Part shown: in pieces, positions 11,389 through 28,947 of the stretch
Position numbering within the stretch: the first letter of the stretch is position 1
How the letters are laid out: every line of letters starts with the position of its first letter
Assembly: GCA_041659005.1 (NCBI GenBank)
Contig: JBAZZD010000004.1
Location: forward strand, 1-52,369
Reading direction: 5' to 3'
DNA length: 52,369 nucleotides
Origin: Minisyncoccota bacterium
Lineage (GTDB): Bacteria > Patescibacteriota > Minisyncoccia > UBA6257 > GWB1-50-10
Position numbers and translations under genes: made by a program
The notes under the pieces: generated by a model
Told to the model about the DNA's origin: nothing
Databases searched by the model: none
The model's input: only the letters and a program-made list of their open reading frames with translations

Positions 11389-11453
11389 CTGAAGTGCAAA
11401 ATTCAAAAGTTTATATCAATTCCAAAAAATTAGTAGATTTCAAAACAACACCC

Positions 11454-11730
11454 GTCCCGTTAGAGACAATATGTACTACTATGTTTATATATTACAAAAC
11501 AAAAAGGACAATACATTCTATACTGGGTTAACCGGAGATTTACGGAAACGTTTAAAAGAACACAATGAAAATAAATCAACACGTACGAAAGGAAGGGGGC
11601 TATTTACACTTAGCTATTATGAAACTTGTCTTAATAAAACAGACGCAAGGTCGCGTGAAATCTATCTTAAATCAGGAATGGGTAAGCGATTCATCAAGGA
11701 TCGTCTTAAACGTTTCCTGTCTCTAACGGG
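11454..11730 (+). mobile_element. Long copy of the inverted-repeat element, carrying a GIY-YIG ORF
   Basis: Perfect 13-bp arms CCCGTTAGAGACA (11456-11468) and TGTCTCTAACGGG (11718-11730). The right arm abuts the ATG at 11731. Confidence 0.7.
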
Positions 11731-11734
11731 ATGA
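11471..11734 (+). CDS. GIY-YIG (URI-domain, COG2827-like) small nuclease
   Basis: 87 aa. YYVYILQNKKDNTFYTGLTGDLRKRLKEHN gives the GIY / YxG / R...E pattern. Stop overlaps the next ATG (ATGA). Confidence 0.85.
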   Translation: MYYYVYILQNKKDNTFYTGLTGDLRKRLKEHNENKSTRTKGRGLFTLSYYETCLNKTDARSREIYLKSGMGKRFIKDRLKRFLSLTG

Positions 11735-13353: not shown

Positions 13354-13488
13354 GGGTGACTTCAAAAATCATTCTTTTGAGTAAAATTTTCATACAATAT
13401 AAATTCGTTTATGAATATATACGTGTTAGTATGTTCGTTTTTAATCAAAACCAACGAATCAATTCCCTAAATATTTCTTAGACGAAAA

Positions 13489-13676
13489 AATCCATAGGTA
13501 TAGATGTGTGCTAGAACGTACTTTTATAAATCCACGAATGGGAAGAAATTATAAAGAATGTAATAAAGAAAGCTGTTTGAGGCGCCCTTGGCGCTGAGTT
13601 CTTTCTCTATTACATTCTTTTCTTTCCTGAGTTGGATTTATAGTATGTGAAAGTTTCATCTATACCTATGGATTCT
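13489..13676. repeat. Long (~187 nt) imperfect palindrome with a GC-rich tip
   Basis: Outer arms atccataggtatagatg (13490-13506) and catctatacctatggat(t) (13658-13675). Inner pairs tataaatcca/tggatttata and aagaatgtaataaagaaag/ctttctctattacattctt. Tip is ggcgcc-ctt-ggcgct. Confidence 0.7.
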
Positions 13677-13680
13677 GGAG

Positions 13681-13707
13681 TTAGCACTTGACACTGTCCA
13701 GTGCTAA
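13681..13707 (+). promoter_or_regulatory. CIRCE operator (HrcA binding site)
   Basis: TTAGCACTT-N9-CAGTGCTAA against the consensus TTAGCACTC-N9-GAGTGCTAA. Lies immediately upstream of hrcA. Confidence 0.85.
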
Positions 13708-13715
13708 TTTATAAT
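13688..13715 (+). promoter_or_regulatory. Consensus sigma70 promoter embedded in CIRCE
   Basis: TTGACA (13688-13693) -N16- TATAAT (13710-13715). The -10 overlaps ATG 13714. The second in-frame ATG is at 13723. Confidence 0.6.
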
Positions 13716-14400: not shown

Positions 14401-14413
14401 GTAGAATATATGG

Positions 14414-14517
14414 ATCCCGTTAGAAGACGGGATAGTAAAAAATAATTTATTGAATATATATGAAAAAGCAAACATTTAAATTGTCGAGCAAGCAAAATAA
14501 TCAAATTTTCTAACGGG
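14414..14517 (+). repeat. Inverted-repeat element copy 3, between hrcA and grpE
   Basis: Left arm ATCCCGTTAGAA (14414-14425) and right arm TTCTAACGGG (14508-14517), abutting the grpE ATG at 14518. Confidence 0.8.
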
Positions 14518-15018
14518 ATGGAAGAAGAAAAAAAAGAAGAAAATATTGCGGAGGAGTTAGATCTTGAAGGAATCCAAAAAGAGCGGAATGAATATCTTGA
14601 AGGATGGAAACGCGCGCGAGCAGATTTTATAAATTATAAAAATGAAGAGAGTGAGCGAGCAAGGCGATTGGGTGTAATAACAAAAGAAGTAATTATTGTA
14701 GACATTCTTCCGGTTCTTGATAGCTTTAGGCTTGGAATTATGTCATCAAATGATGAGCAGTCAAAAAAAGGAATGGAACTTATCCGAATGCAATTAGAAG
14801 AAGTATTGAAACGGAATGGATTGGAGAAAATAAGCATAAGTCCAGGAGAAATATTTAATCCATTGTATCACGAGGCAATTGGGGAAAAAGAATCTGAATA
14901 TCCCGAAGGAACGATTGTAGAAGAAATTGGAATTGGATATATACTTGATGGGCGAGTAGTGCGACCAACAAAGGTAAAAATATCAAAGGAGTCGAAAACA
15001 ATAAACAATAAACAATAA
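14518..15018 (+). CDS. grpE: Nucleotide exchange factor GrpE
   Basis: 166 aa. YLEGWKRARADFINYKNE coiled-coil motif and C-terminal beta domain. Position between hrcA and dnaK. Confidence 0.9.
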   Translation: MEEEKKEENIAEELDLEGIQKERNEYLEGWKRARADFINYKNEESERARRLGVITKEVIIVDILPVLDSFRLGIMSSNDEQSKKGMELIRMQLEEVLKRNGLEKISISPGEIFNPLYHEAIGEKESEYPEGTIVEEIGIGYILDGRVVRPTKVKISKESKTINNKQ

Positions 15019-25745: not shown

Positions 25746-25834
25746 ATTCGTGGTCTCAATAACAAACTAATACATTGATAGAAATAAATATCACATAAAA
25801 ATGTCGCACCTATCCATGAACTGCTTCTAACGGG
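25746..25834 (+). repeat. Inverted-repeat element copy 4 (left arm decayed), between ftsL and ftsI
   Basis: The right arm GCTTCTAACGGG abuts the ftsI ATG at 25835. ATGTCG mini-ORF at 25801-25830. The left end keeps only ATTCGT (25746-25751), shared with copy 1. Confidence 0.6.
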
Positions 25835-27439
25835 ATGAAAATCCGATTTTATATAATTACAGGATTTTTTACTTTGTTGTTTACCCTTCTCGGCGTGAAT
25901 CTGTATCAGCTTCAAATCGAGAAGGGCAAGGATTTTACGAGTAAAATTGAAGCACAAAATGCTTCACGAGAAGAACTTAATCTCCGAAGGGGGAGTATTT
26001 TATTTTCAAACCGTTCAGGAGATGAGATTCAAGTTGCTCTTAATAAAGATTTTCCTATTGTATATGCGGTACCAAAGGAAATTGAAAATGCAAAAGAAAC
26101 TGCGCGTACAATCGCTGCATTATTTTCGCTTGATGAGGCAAAACTTGAGAAAGATTTTTCTAATAAAAAAAGTCTATTTAAGCTTTTGAAGAATAAGGCA
26201 GACAATTCAACACTTGCTTCTGTTCGTTCACTTAATATAAAAGGGATTTACACTGACACAAAACAGTATCGATATTATCCATTCAATGAACTCGCAAGTT
26301 CGCTTATTGGATTTGTCGGGGTAAATGAAGATGCAAGTGAACCAATTGGGTTATATGGAATTGAGAAAATGTATGATGAAATACTTGCGCGAGGCGATCA
26401 AGTTTCATTTACCATTGATAGAGAAATACAAGCAAAGGCAGAACAAACACTTGAAGAGCTTTTGATTGCACATAATGGAACTGCTGCAACAATTGTGGTA
26501 CAGGAACCAGTTACTGGGAAAATACTTGCACTTGCAAACAAGCCAAGTTTCAATCCGAATGAGTATGAAGATTCGTCTACACAGAATTTTATGAATACTG
26601 CGGTGCAATATGTGTATGAGCCCGGTTCGGTGTTTAAGCCATTCACTATGTCTGCAGGAATTGATTCTGGCGCGATCACTCCGGATACAACCTATGTTGA
26701 TACGGGAAGCGTGACACTAAATGGGGCAACAATTCGAAATTGGGATTTAAAGGCACACGGGAAAGTTACAATGACGAATGCAATTGAGCTTTCATTAAAT
26801 ACCGCAACAGTGTTTGCTGAACAAAAAACTGGGCATAAAACATTTCATGAATATTTAAAAAAATATGGCTTTGGTGAGTTGAGTGAAATTGATCTTCCCG
26901 ACGAGGTGCGCGGAAGCATAAAAAACTTAGAACGAAAAGAAGTGCGTGATGTTGATTATGCGACCGCAGCATATGGACAAGGGGTTTCACTTACTCCAAT
27001 TCAACTCATTGCCGCATTTTCTGCGATTGCAAACGGTGGCGTGTTGATGAAGCCATATGTACGTACAAGCGAAACGCCGTATGTAGTTCGTCGTGTAATA
27101 AAAAAGGAAACAGCAGACAAAGTTCGCATGATGATGGAATCTGCCGTTGATAAAGCAAGAATTGCGGCGATCCCAAATTATCACGTAGCGGGTAAAACAG
27201 GTACTGCATTTATTCCCGATTTTAAGCGAGGTGGATATACAGAAGATCTGATACAGACTTTTGTTGGTTTTGCGCCCGCGACCAATCCGAAGTTCGTGAT
27301 TTTAATAAAACTTGATAAACCAAATAAAGAACTTGCGGGACTTACTGTTGTTCCTGCGTTCAAAACATTTGCACAATTTATCTTGAATTATTACAATATT
27401 CCTCCTGATCGAATTGGAGAACAAATTAAATCACAATGA
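25835..27439 (+). CDS. ftsI: Penicillin-binding protein (FtsI/PBP3-type transpeptidase)
   Basis: N-terminal TM helix. SxxK (GSVFKP), SxN (SLN) and KTG (KTGTA). dcw context. Confidence 0.85.
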   Translation: MKIRFYIITGFFTLLFTLLGVNLYQLQIEKGKDFTSKIEAQNASREELNLRRGSILFSNRSGDEIQVALNKDFPIVYAVPKEIENAKETARTIAALFSLDEAKLEKDFSNKKSLFKLLKNKADNSTLASVRSLNIKGIYTDTKQYRYYPFNELASSLIGFVGVNEDASEPIGLYGIEKMYDEILARGDQVSFTIDREIQAKAEQTLEELLIAHNGTAATIVVQEPVTGKILALANKPSFNPNEYEDSSTQNFMNTAVQYVYEPGSVFKPFTMSAGIDSGAITPDTTYVDTGSVTLNGATIRNWDLKAHGKVTMTNAIELSLNTATVFAEQKTGHKTFHEYLKKYGFGELSEIDLPDEVRGSIKNLERKEVRDVDYATAAYGQGVSLTPIQLIAAFSAIANGGVLMKPYVRTSETPYVVRRVIKKETADKVRMMMESAVDKARIAAIPNYHVAGKTGTAFIPDFKRGGYTEDLIQTFVGFAPATNPKFVILIKLDKPNKELAGLTVVPAFKTFAQFILNYYNIPPDRIGEQIKSQ

Positions 27440-27544
27440 ATCCCGTTAGAAAACGAACAAATATTAGTGGGTTTCCTATAGTGTTTTTATTTAATTTATT
27501 ACTATCTATGTCGAAAAAACAAAATTGTCATATCTTCTAACGGG
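27440..27544 (+). repeat. Inverted-repeat element copy 5, between ftsI and murF
   Basis: ATCCCGTTAGAA (27440-27451) and TTCTAACGGG (27535-27544), abutting the murF ATG at 27545. Confidence 0.8.
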
Positions 27545-28858
27545 ATGAAAAAATTTATGATTTCCATACTTCAGGGCATTTTGAAATATATTGCACGGGC
27601 AATAATTGCCAAATATAATCCAATGATTATTGGAATTACAGGGAGTGTTGGGAAGACATCCGCAAAAGAAGCGGTGCGCAATGTTATTGCGCGCGAGCGA
27701 ATAGTACGTGCGCCGTCAAAGAATTTTAATAACGAGCTTGGACTTCCACTTGCAATTATTGGTGATTTCGAATCAATTGGCGGGATTTTGTTCTGGATTT
27801 TTGTATTATGCAAAGGTGTTTATATCATCATTATTAGAAATAAATCCTATCCAGAGGTTTTGATACTTGAATATGGTGTTGATCGTCCTGGAGATATGAA
27901 AAAATTACTTGATATCGCTCGTCCTCATGTTGGAATTTTTTCTGCTATGGGAAAAGTACCGGTACACATTGAATATTTTACTGGTCCAGATCAGGTAGCA
28001 AAAGAAAAAACAAAGTTGATCGCACAACTTCCTGCTACTGGATTTGCGATTTTAAATGCAGACGATCCATTGGTGATGCGCGCAAAAAATGATACTCGTG
28101 CACAGATACTAACGTTTGGGATGAGCGAACATGCTGATGTGAGAATTAGTAATTTCTCAAATCACTTTGATGGTCACAATACTGAAATTTCAATGAAACT
28201 TACGTACGGTGGAAGCTTTGTTCCTGTTCGTATTAATGGGGCACTTGGGGAATCACAAGCATTTACCTCCGCAATTGCGTGTGCAGTTGGATTGGTATTT
28301 GGAATGAATCTTGTCTCAATCGCTGAATTGCTTTCAAAATATGAAGCGCCAGCAGGACGATTACGATGTATACAAGGAATTCGTGAATCAATGATTATTG
28401 ATGACACATACAACGCATCGCCAAAGGCGATGGAGAATGCGGTTGATACACTTGCGTCACTTCCAGCACGAAGACATATCGCAGTGCTCGGTGATATGTT
28501 AGAGCTTGGGAAATATACTCTCGAGGCACACGAAGAAATTGGGAAAATGATAAAAAAGAAAGGAATTGATATATTAATAACTCTTGGACTTCGAGGAAAA
28601 TTGATTGCGGAAGCAGCGCAAAATGCTGGAATGTCATCAAAATCAATATTTATTGCGGACACTATTGATGAGGTTGTTCATTTTCTCGAGACAAAAATTC
28701 AGAAAAGTGACTTGTTATTAGTAAAAGGATCACAAGGTGTTCGAATGGAGAGAATTGTAAAACGAATTATGGCAGAGCCTGAACATGCATACGATCGTAT
28801 CGCTCGCCAAAATTCAGAATGGATTGTAAAGAAGGGAATGTATGATGAGGGGGAGTAG
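27545..28858 (+). CDS. murF: UDP-MurNAc-tripeptide--D-Ala-D-Ala ligase MurF
   Basis: Mur ligase P-loop GITGSVGKTS. Central and C-terminal Mur ligase domains (DDTYNASP, LVKGSQGVRME). Confidence 0.9.
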   Translation: MKKFMISILQGILKYIARAIIAKYNPMIIGITGSVGKTSAKEAVRNVIARERIVRAPSKNFNNELGLPLAIIGDFESIGGILFWIFVLCKGVYIIIIRNKSYPEVLILEYGVDRPGDMKKLLDIARPHVGIFSAMGKVPVHIEYFTGPDQVAKEKTKLIAQLPATGFAILNADDPLVMRAKNDTRAQILTFGMSEHADVRISNFSNHFDGHNTEISMKLTYGGSFVPVRINGALGESQAFTSAIACAVGLVFGMNLVSIAELLSKYEAPAGRLRCIQGIRESMIIDDTYNASPKAMENAVDTLASLPARRHIAVLGDMLELGKYTLEAHEEIGKMIKKKGIDILITLGLRGKLIAEAAQNAGMSSKSIFIADTIDEVVHFLETKIQKSDLLLVKGSQGVRMERIVKRIMAEPEHAYDRIARQNSEWIVKKGMYDEGE

Positions 28859-28860
28859 GT

Positions 28861-28947
28861 AATACGCTCATCTCATATATTCTTTCGAACTGTCTCCGGG
28901 GCGACGCCCAAGTCTTAGTCCTCAAGAATATATGAGATAAGCGTATT
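28861..28947. repeat. Long hairpin (24-bp stem) at the end of the dcw operon, probably a terminator
   Basis: Arms aatacgctcatctcatatattctt (28861-28884) and aagaatatatgagataagcgtatt (28924-28947), one mismatch. GC-rich loop with ggggcgacgccc. Followed by TTTTG. Confidence 0.7.

Follow-up and report, generated by a model that had tools for sequence, protein, structure and literature searches.

Bacterial genomes harbor a variety of MITEs (miniature inverted-repeat transposable elements) and intergenic palindromic repeats, including the Correia/NEMIS repeats of Neisseria, ERIC, RUP, and the REPIN-RAYT system, which are generally about 100 nt in length, bounded by terminal inverted repeats and a short target duplication, and present in many copies per genome. 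They also lie within operons, where they are co-transcribed as hairpins, and can be accompanied by an autonomous partner bearing the same ends. A different kind of selfish DNA is represented by the free-standing GIY-YIG genes of T4-like phages (seg and mob, with mobE located after nrdA), whose starts overlap the upstream stop, an arrangement that has been read as translational coupling (PMC2988022). Strict coupling by termination-reinitiation at ATGA or TGATG overlaps has been demonstrated experimentally in E. coli and Haloferax (PMC6728339). Herein, a stretch of 52,369 nt from a Minisyncoccota bacterium (contig JBAZZD010000004.1 of assembly GCA_041659005.1; this whole stretch is termed the window) is analyzed with respect to these systems, with the focus on a 104-nt inverted-repeat element between ftsI and murF and on the 34-codon open reading frame (the mini-ORF) running through it.

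The gene of the PBP/FtsI-type transpeptidase (534 aa; 25835-27439, on the plus strand, like murF and the element copies of the window; Pfam Transpeptidase at 7e-74 together with PBP_dimer) ends with a TGA (27437-27439) that overlaps an ATG on the same strand (27436-27438) to form ATGA. This ATG opens the mini-ORF (27436-27540), whose translation is MNPVRKRTNISGFPIVFLFNLLLSMSKKQNCHIF followed by the stop, and whose TAA (27538-27540) sits 4 nt 5' of the ATG of the Mur ligase (MurF-type) gene (27545-28858) in the arrangement TAA CGGG ATG. A perfect 12-nt inverted repeat, ATCCCGTTAGAA at 27440-27451 and TTCTAACGGGAT at 27535-27546, is crossed in both arms by the mini-ORF, and the RNA hairpin across it is predicted at -25.5 kcal/mol (z = -3.0). 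The ATG at 27545 is preceded by no Shine-Dalgarno motif, and its first two bases lie within the stem.

The origin of this arrangement became apparent from relatives that carry no element. In four of them (L123, L124, L125, and L126, with MurF proteins 84-86% identical), the murF site reads …aaaacacaATGAAGAAATTT and contains …cacaATGAAGAAATTT, with the TGA of ftsI overlapping the ATG of murF, whereas the site in the window reads …cacaATGAA/T-CCCGTTAGAA…TTCTAACGGG/ATGAAaaaattt. The difference between the empty and the filled site implies that 104 nt were inserted and that ATGAA was duplicated, so that the ATG at 27436 is the ancestral murF start and the ATG at 27545 is its copy. The inserted element spans 27441-27544 and is composed of a T, the left arm CCCGTTAGAA (27442-27451), the interior, and the right arm TTCTAACGGG (27535-27544), the last of which holds the stop of the mini-ORF; the two copies of the duplication occupy 27436-27440 and 27545-27549. 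These limits agree among the sequence, the repeat search, a pattern match, the absence in the four relatives, and an orthologous copy in a fifth relative, L256. The same situation is found in the hrcA-grpE spacer, where a second short copy (14410-14522) reads ATGGA/T-CCCG…CGGG/ATGGAAGAAGAA and the orthologous site in L257 and L258 is empty (…taaataatATGGAAGAAGAA). Before the insertion, the murF ATG overlapped the ftsI TGA; after it, the old ATG at 27436 opens a frame to the TAA of the right arm, and the duplicated ATG at 27545 starts murF. The mini-ORF exists because a mobile hairpin element entered the murF start codon and duplicated it, and it is regarded as highly probable that 27436-27540 reflects the insertion, at a start codon, of a mobile element related to the GIY-YIG genes.

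The relation to GIY-YIG nucleases rests on a long copy in the window (11456-11730), in which the same arms lie 255 nt apart and enclose an 87-aa ORF (11471-11734) with a GIY-YIG domain (Pfam PF01541, 6.6e-15). The right arm forms its last codons, TCT CTA ACG GGA TGA, the TGA of which overlaps the ATG (11731) of the gene that follows. The arms CCCGTTAGA and TCTAACGGG are the coding ends (MNPVRD… and …RFLSLTG with its stop) of a GIY-YIG gene of 86-95 aa. At least 198 homologues of the 87-aa ORF were retrieved at E <= 1e-5, and those named by source all come from Patescibacteria. They occur in forms of 86 aa and 94-95 aa, the longer of which begin with MNPVRD, MDPVRD, or MSPVRE, i.e., with the translation of ATG-NNT and the left arm; the C-terminus …RFLSLTG (or …LTE) is shared by 21 of 24 inspected homologues, and the other three run on past it. 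The gene is started from the ATG of the host, and its TGA shares bases with the duplicated ATG. When a metagenome collection was scanned for arms spaced by about 255 nt, at least 120 loci, most of them in Patescibacteria, were obtained with 112 distinct copies, among which an ATG is present at position -6 in 75, the duplication matches in 67 of these 75, and the frame is open from position -6 to the TGA overlapping the second ATG in 54 of the 112. Loci picked by protein similarity alone, which lie in the pheS-pheT spacer and in front of a gene for an isochorismatase, likewise display the left end ATGAAT-CCCG and a TGA that overlaps the ATG of the next gene.

The proteins of 86-95 aa consist of the catalytic domain only and are of the UPF0213 type, with no separate DNA-binding domain; their best solved relatives are 1zg2 (1.4e-8) and 1ywl (3e-4), and their similarity to TIGR01453, a model of group I intron endonucleases, is weak and below the cutoff. 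The GIY-YIG protein is a candidate for the mobilizing enzyme of the element, and we know of no precedent for transposition catalyzed by such a protein. The segment 27441-27544 is a non-autonomous, MITE-like member of the family whose full-length form carries the GIY-YIG gene. Remnants of GIY-YIG coding sequence are recognizable in two short copies (E = 8e-7 and 4e-5). The idea that the short copies are simple internal deletions of the GIY-YIG ORF was not retained, being demonstrable in 2 of 126 and weak for the murF copy (E = 0.027).

The short copies were collected from one genome per species by means of the pattern CCCGTTAGA-N62-92-TCTAACGGGATG, which returned at least 120 loci, and the statistics below rest on 126 distinct copies from loci L003-L122. 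Most derive from metagenome-assembled genomes (MAGs) of Patescibacteria and some from MAGs labelled Omnitrophica, Planctomycetes, Deltaproteobacteria, Nitrospirae, and Gammaproteobacteria, a breadth that MAG binning errors could inflate. The copies are 83-113 nt long and contain no transposase gene, and their arms extend a median of 5 bp past the conserved 9-mer. An ATG is located 6 nt 5' of the left arm in 92 of 126, the next two bases match codon 2 of the downstream ORF in 81 of these 92, and the base adjoining the left arm is T in 119 of 126. In the reconstructed target only ATGAA is conserved, the two positions that follow ATG being A in 84% and 88%. The pattern would match any ATGAA insertion, and yet an ORF of 60 codons or more begins at the downstream ATG in 114 of 126 copies, compared with 28% for random ATGs of the same loci, which places the copies at gene starts; the genes that follow are unrelated and include mreC, grpE, ftsI, murF, pheT, and the isochorismatase gene. 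The family is found at ATGAA start codons of genes, and these 5 bp are duplicated by it.

Further features of the family were recorded in the same collection. A GGAG or GAGG motif occurs 10-14 nt before the duplicated ATG in 16 short copies (e.g., L004, L044, L050, and L112) with a sharp positional peak, which indicates that certain lineages obtain a ribosome-binding site from the element as well; among the cases listed, most of these subfamilies belong to MAGs of Planctomycetes, Omnitrophica, and Deltaproteobacteria, and their GGAGG adjoins the right arm and is paired with a CCTCC-like sequence beside the left arm. Two tandem pairs of elements (L009, around 106-327, and L069, around 1281-1500, both on the minus strand) have the junction …TCTAACGGGATGAATCCCGTTAGA…; in these pairs one element took as its target the start that another had duplicated. 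About a quarter of all copies lack both the ATG before the left arm and the duplication; recurrent left flanks (ACTTGT in L023, L025, L057, L070, and L119, and xxxCGT) were seen in them, and ATG-less flanks of this sort may represent a second kind of left junction or the decay of the old start. In IMG/VR a short copy was found on one viral contig only (L255, 3736-3830); carriage by phages was rejected on account of this single match, and the element appears to be essentially chromosomal.

The reading frames inside the elements are far from random. The interior is stop-free in the frame of the old ATG in 34 of the 92 copies that have this ATG, as compared with 8 and 10 of 92 in the other two frames and with 5 of 34 in the copies devoid of the old ATG. 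When the frames are defined by where they end, open interiors number 42 of 126 for the frame ending at the arm TAA (13.4 ± 3.5 in shuffles), 23 of 126 for the frame ending at the TGA that overlaps the downstream ATG (13.9 ± 3.4), and 1 of 126 for the frame in phase with the host ORF (13.3 ± 3.3); in 500 shuffles, single-frame counts were never below 4 or above 25. Sorted by length class, the frame of the old ATG is open in 25 of 54 copies in which it ends at the TAA, in 13 of 41 in which it ends at the TGA, and in 1 of 31 in which it would be fused to the host gene (Fisher p = 4e-5, and the same after weighting by sequence cluster). The last in-phase stop is usually situated 5-8 codons before the host ATG, so that all three frames are closed at the exit of the element. 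Such a pattern would be expected if ribosomes read these elements, and it fits selection that would favor termination beside the duplicated start and forbid N-terminal fusions.

In the mechanism proposed for the window locus, ribosomes that have finished ftsI would resume at 27436 and read through the 34 codons, thereby unwinding the arm-arm hairpin, in which the new AUG and the bases directly preceding it would otherwise be paired; they would then terminate 4 nt upstream of the murF AUG and reinitiate there, so that murF expression would be almost unaffected by the insertion. The same trick would be employed by the full-length element, with the host start codon driving the nuclease ORF and the TGA of the latter overlapping the duplicated ATG. 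The combination of a GIY-YIG-family insertion at the start codon with such a relay is considered the best overall explanation and is assigned a probability of roughly 0.58; taken by itself, a relay function of the mini-ORF in murF translation has a slightly better than even chance.

A further view of the element is offered by L256, the closest relative (MurF 88% identical), which carries it at the same site (L256:1338-1441), again with 104 nt and no indel. It is 87.5% identical to 27441-27544, as compared with 63% (murF) and 72% (ftsI) identity at the flanking third codon positions, and at these silent-site rates a total of 13 or fewer differences in 104 nt has p <= 1e-4. The 34-codon frame and its TAA are kept, with 7 of 34 residues different. 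Within the arms, CCCG/CGGG is changed to CCTG/CAGG, which is compensatory, and TTCT to TTTT, which gives a G:U pair, so that pairing is kept. Recent recombination was deemed an unlikely source of the identity, as the abutting 36-nt flanks are more diverged (about 73% identity upstream and about 86% downstream).

The junction had been described earlier in a reading made from the letters of the window alone (the sequence-only reading), whose account of the ATG overlapping the ftsI stop, the 34-codon frame through both arms, and the TAA 4 nt before the murF ATG was confirmed by the sequence and its translation. It had missed the mobile insertion with its 5-bp duplication and the origin of the arms as GIY-YIG coding ends, and its interpretation is supported in part. 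The termination-reinitiation geometry that it put forward agrees with the non-random frames of the 126 elements, whereas 58 of the 92 copies keeping the old ATG (63%) stop early, after 5-31 codons; it is thus not obligatory for a relay to come as close as 4 nt to the ATG. The check it had proposed, namely whether homologues keep the frame and the TAA as the peptide drifts, had a positive outcome in L256, yet random substitution sets retain the frame and the stop 31% of the time.

Like these two figures, several other observations tell against the relay or narrow its reach. In the murF copy itself, 7.9% of interior shuffles are open to the TAA (p = 0.08), and the openness of this single copy is therefore not significant. 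The codon changes in L256 comprise 4 synonymous and 6 non-synonymous ones, so the peptide is not conserved, and as 87.5% of the nucleotides are nevertheless kept, a constraint other than the avoidance of stops must act on the element sequence. The ATG at -6 is missing in 34 of 126 short copies (27%), which sit before intact genes. The same is true of two window copies, namely a third short copy in the mreB-mreC spacer (2838-2934, identified by pattern match), which has ATTCGT (2832-2837) in place of an ATG 6 nt 5' of the left arm, and the GIY-YIG copy, whose left flank (11450-11455) is ACCCGT with no upstream ATG. Both collection scans, short and long, required an ATG after the right arm, and nine copies at non-ATG sites were met incidentally. 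Finally, mismatches in the extended stems reveal no sense-strand bias for G:U (11 G:U versus 12 A:C); selection on the stem at the RNA level, sought by this measure, was not seen, and the hairpin as a family feature is explained by the DNA ends of the element and may be of importance in that capacity alone.

Part of this evidence would be accounted for if the mini-ORF were an accidental by-product of the insertion and murF were initiated directly at 27545 whenever the hairpin is open, either by breathing or through decoy pairing of a CGGG. The early stops, the ATG-less copies before intact genes, and the p value of 0.08 for the murF copy all agree with this explanation, as do the subfamilies that bring their own Shine-Dalgarno motif for the duplicated ATG. 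A source of decoy pairing is also available, in that an internal CGGG lies within 40 nt of the left arm, about 10-30 nt after it, in 32 of 126 short copies, compared with 4.2 expected and with only 2 at the mirror position; by local pairing with the CCCG of the left arm, it could act as a competitor of the arm-arm stem and leave the downstream AUG accessible. In the window, such internal CGGG motifs are located at 14426-14432 (ACGGGAT) and 2855-2858. However, elements that are never read by ribosomes would hardly be expected to show the frame asymmetry of 42, 23, and 1, where about 13 would be due to each frame; open interiors go together with the old ATG (34/92 in its presence versus 5/34 in its absence), and the ATG at 27545, with two bases in the stem, lacks a Shine-Dalgarno motif. 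An accidental mini-ORF is rated as rather unlikely.

The constraint seen in L256 could instead mean that the hairpin has been co-opted as a regulatory or processing site of the RNA or DNA, such as an RNase III site, an mRNA stabilizer, or an ftsI:murF attenuator, with the ORF being incidental. The excess of identity over silent sites, the compensatory and G:U changes in the arms, the drifting peptide, and the stability of the predicted folds (z = -3.0 to -3.9) would all suit such a role. Against it stand the reliance on a single orthologous pair, in which the compensatory pair has a chance of roughly 0.07 by our own estimate, the lack of a family-wide G:U bias, and the frame statistics, which it leaves unexplained. 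Moreover, in a search of the window with Rfam 15 only two tRNAs reached the gathering score and the element matched no curated RNA family, the best match over 27380-27620 being a microRNA model (E = 0.37). A co-opted hairpin is on balance improbable as the explanation of the mini-ORF. Resemblance to an integron attC site was considered by eye and dismissed: GTTAGAR/YTCTAAC recall core sites, but their order is wrong and a second site is missing. A different inverted repeat lies just 3' of the murF stop (28861-28947; 31-nt arms, 87% complementary, 25-nt loop), and the sequence 3' of murF in L256 does not align with it.

A third explanation arises from the remaining copies in the window, whose 52 kb hold four short or partial copies. 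In addition to the murF, grpE, and mreC copies, a decayed older one precedes ftsI (25801-25834), of which comparison with relatives shows that only the right arm and an ATGTCG…TAA segment are left; this 3' segment is common to L123-L126 and absent in L127 and L128. The window has 3 arm pairs with an ATG directly after them, versus 0.00 expected, and TTCTAACGGG with at most one mismatch occurs 9 times versus 2.2 expected. The frame of the old ATG in the grpE copy ends after 11 codons. In the mreC copy, 35 sense codons of open frame separate the stop of mreB from the TAA that begins at 2928, one fewer than the 36 counted by the sequence-only reading. The four short frames given in that reading (2901-2930, 14481-14513, 25801-25830, and 27508-27540) translate as it had claimed, and its assertion that every short copy bears an (A/T)TGTCG start is valid for these four, each having the motif in frame 27 or 30 nt before the TAA; in the family the motif is rare, with 6 NTGTCG among 126 elements and 1 of them in frame. 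A 360-nt gap of the window (13354-13713) contains only ORFs of up to 63 aa, and at this place L257 and L258 possess a gene of the 23S_rRNA_IVP family, coding for 117 aa, between the pilin-like gene and hrcA.

The motif might be the start of a second short ORF, giving a two-step relay, or the end of the -10 box of an outward promoter transcribing murF. Besides its constant spacing in the window, the segment is kept in the old ftsL-ftsI copy across three lineages, where TTGATA-16-AAAAAT ends at the ATG of ATGTCG. On the other hand, the four copies form one subfamily whose shared spacing may be inherited, the motif WTGTCGMAM is not enriched in the window (8 versus 4.7 expected), and plus-strand promoter-like sites are present in one of the four window copies, which is the chance level. 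Both an outward sigma-70 promoter inside the element and a conserved (A/T)TGTCG start, the latter being peculiar to this genome, were rejected on these grounds, and a role of the motif at murF is very improbable. Removal or skipping of the element at the RNA level, by splicing-like excision between the ATGAA copies or by ribosome bypassing, is scarcely credible: the duplicated ATGAA around a strong hairpin resembles take-off and landing sites, for which no other support was found, but interior frames that are never read would not be selected and these are strongly non-random relative to the host frame, and no ribozyme or intron family was matched.

The insertion at the start codon together with a translational relay remains the preferred reading, from which a wider proposal is advanced tentatively, with somewhat less than an even chance of being right. 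GIY-YIG transposons and their miniatures would occupy ATGAA starts across phyla, and their insertions would be rendered phenotypically silent by a translation-level equivalent of splicing, in which the host start drives the ORF, all frames are closed before the duplicated start, and translation restarts there, with the aid of a Shine-Dalgarno motif in some lineages; some copies, including that between ftsI and murF, would be under host purifying selection. If true, this would be a third way, besides introns and inteins, in which a selfish nuclease gene can persist in essential operons and do them no harm, by means of a borrowed start and termination-restart, and the first prokaryotic inverted-repeat element known to us that has a GIY-YIG nuclease as its sole gene. 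A role would also be provided for part of the large UPF0213-type family, and many of the 'MNPVRD…' extensions at N-termini and of the unusual spacers in annotations of Patescibacteria would be accounted for. Gene callers may choose the wrong start or fuse ORFs at element sites; the database protein P0116 reads …TVSNGMNPVRD…, an N-terminal extension through the right arm into a GIY-YIG copy, which raises the suspicion that starts at these sites are mis-annotated. Meanwhile, the ftsI-murF copy exists as both filled and empty natural alleles and is suited to the design of reporters.

Compared with the known systems, single-domain proteins of the UPF0213 or YazA-YhbQ type have the same size and domain content as the element protein, and none of them is known to us to occur in a mobile context, to hijack a start codon, or to have its termini encoded by arms. 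In the literature no account was found of these arms, of start-codon targeting, or of GIY-YIG-associated bacterial MITEs, within a coverage that is incomplete and in which absence is not proof; a 2024 survey of MITEs mentions neither Patescibacteria nor start codons (PMC11602168). The GIY-YIG genes of T4-like phages are similarly selfish and wedged between host genes, but their enzymes possess a DNA-binding domain and a single cognate locus, and they have no inverted-repeat ends, start duplication, or short derivatives, whereas the present element precedes many unrelated genes; among the hallmarks of homing endonucleases, the GIY-YIG domain is found here and a separate DNA-binding domain and a single cognate site are not. 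As in coupled cistrons, with stop and start within a few nt, exact ATGA overlaps are seen both at the murF site devoid of the element and in the long copies with the GIY-YIG gene; in the murF copy, the upstream 'gene' is a 34-codon ORF derived from the element, the gap is 4 nt, and the coupling is inferred. Group I introns and inteins follow the same logic of a selfish nuclease gene in an essential gene without harm, yet nothing is spliced here (Rfam and Pfam searches gave no ribozyme or intein signature), and harmlessness would come from the restart at the duplicated start.

The closest likeness is to the bacterial MITEs and the REPIN-RAYT system, with which the element shares its length of about 100 nt, many copies per genome, a position within operons with co-transcription as a hairpin, and a putative autonomous partner with the same ends, as well as terminal inverted repeats and a 5-bp target duplication documented by empty sites at murF (ATGAA) and grpE (ATGGA). 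REPIN-RAYT or IS200/IS605-derived elements depend on an HUH (Y1) transposase and create no target duplication, in contrast with the GIY-YIG gene and the 5-bp duplications found here. In form, the element is a MITE with a putative autonomous partner, and it departs from the described families in that the partner gene is a single-domain GIY-YIG nuclease rather than a DDE or HUH transposase, the target is an ATGAA start codon rather than TA or an intergenic site, the ends are coding (MNPVRD… and …SLTG with the stop), and the frames are organized around the host start codon for the hand-over to the gene that follows.

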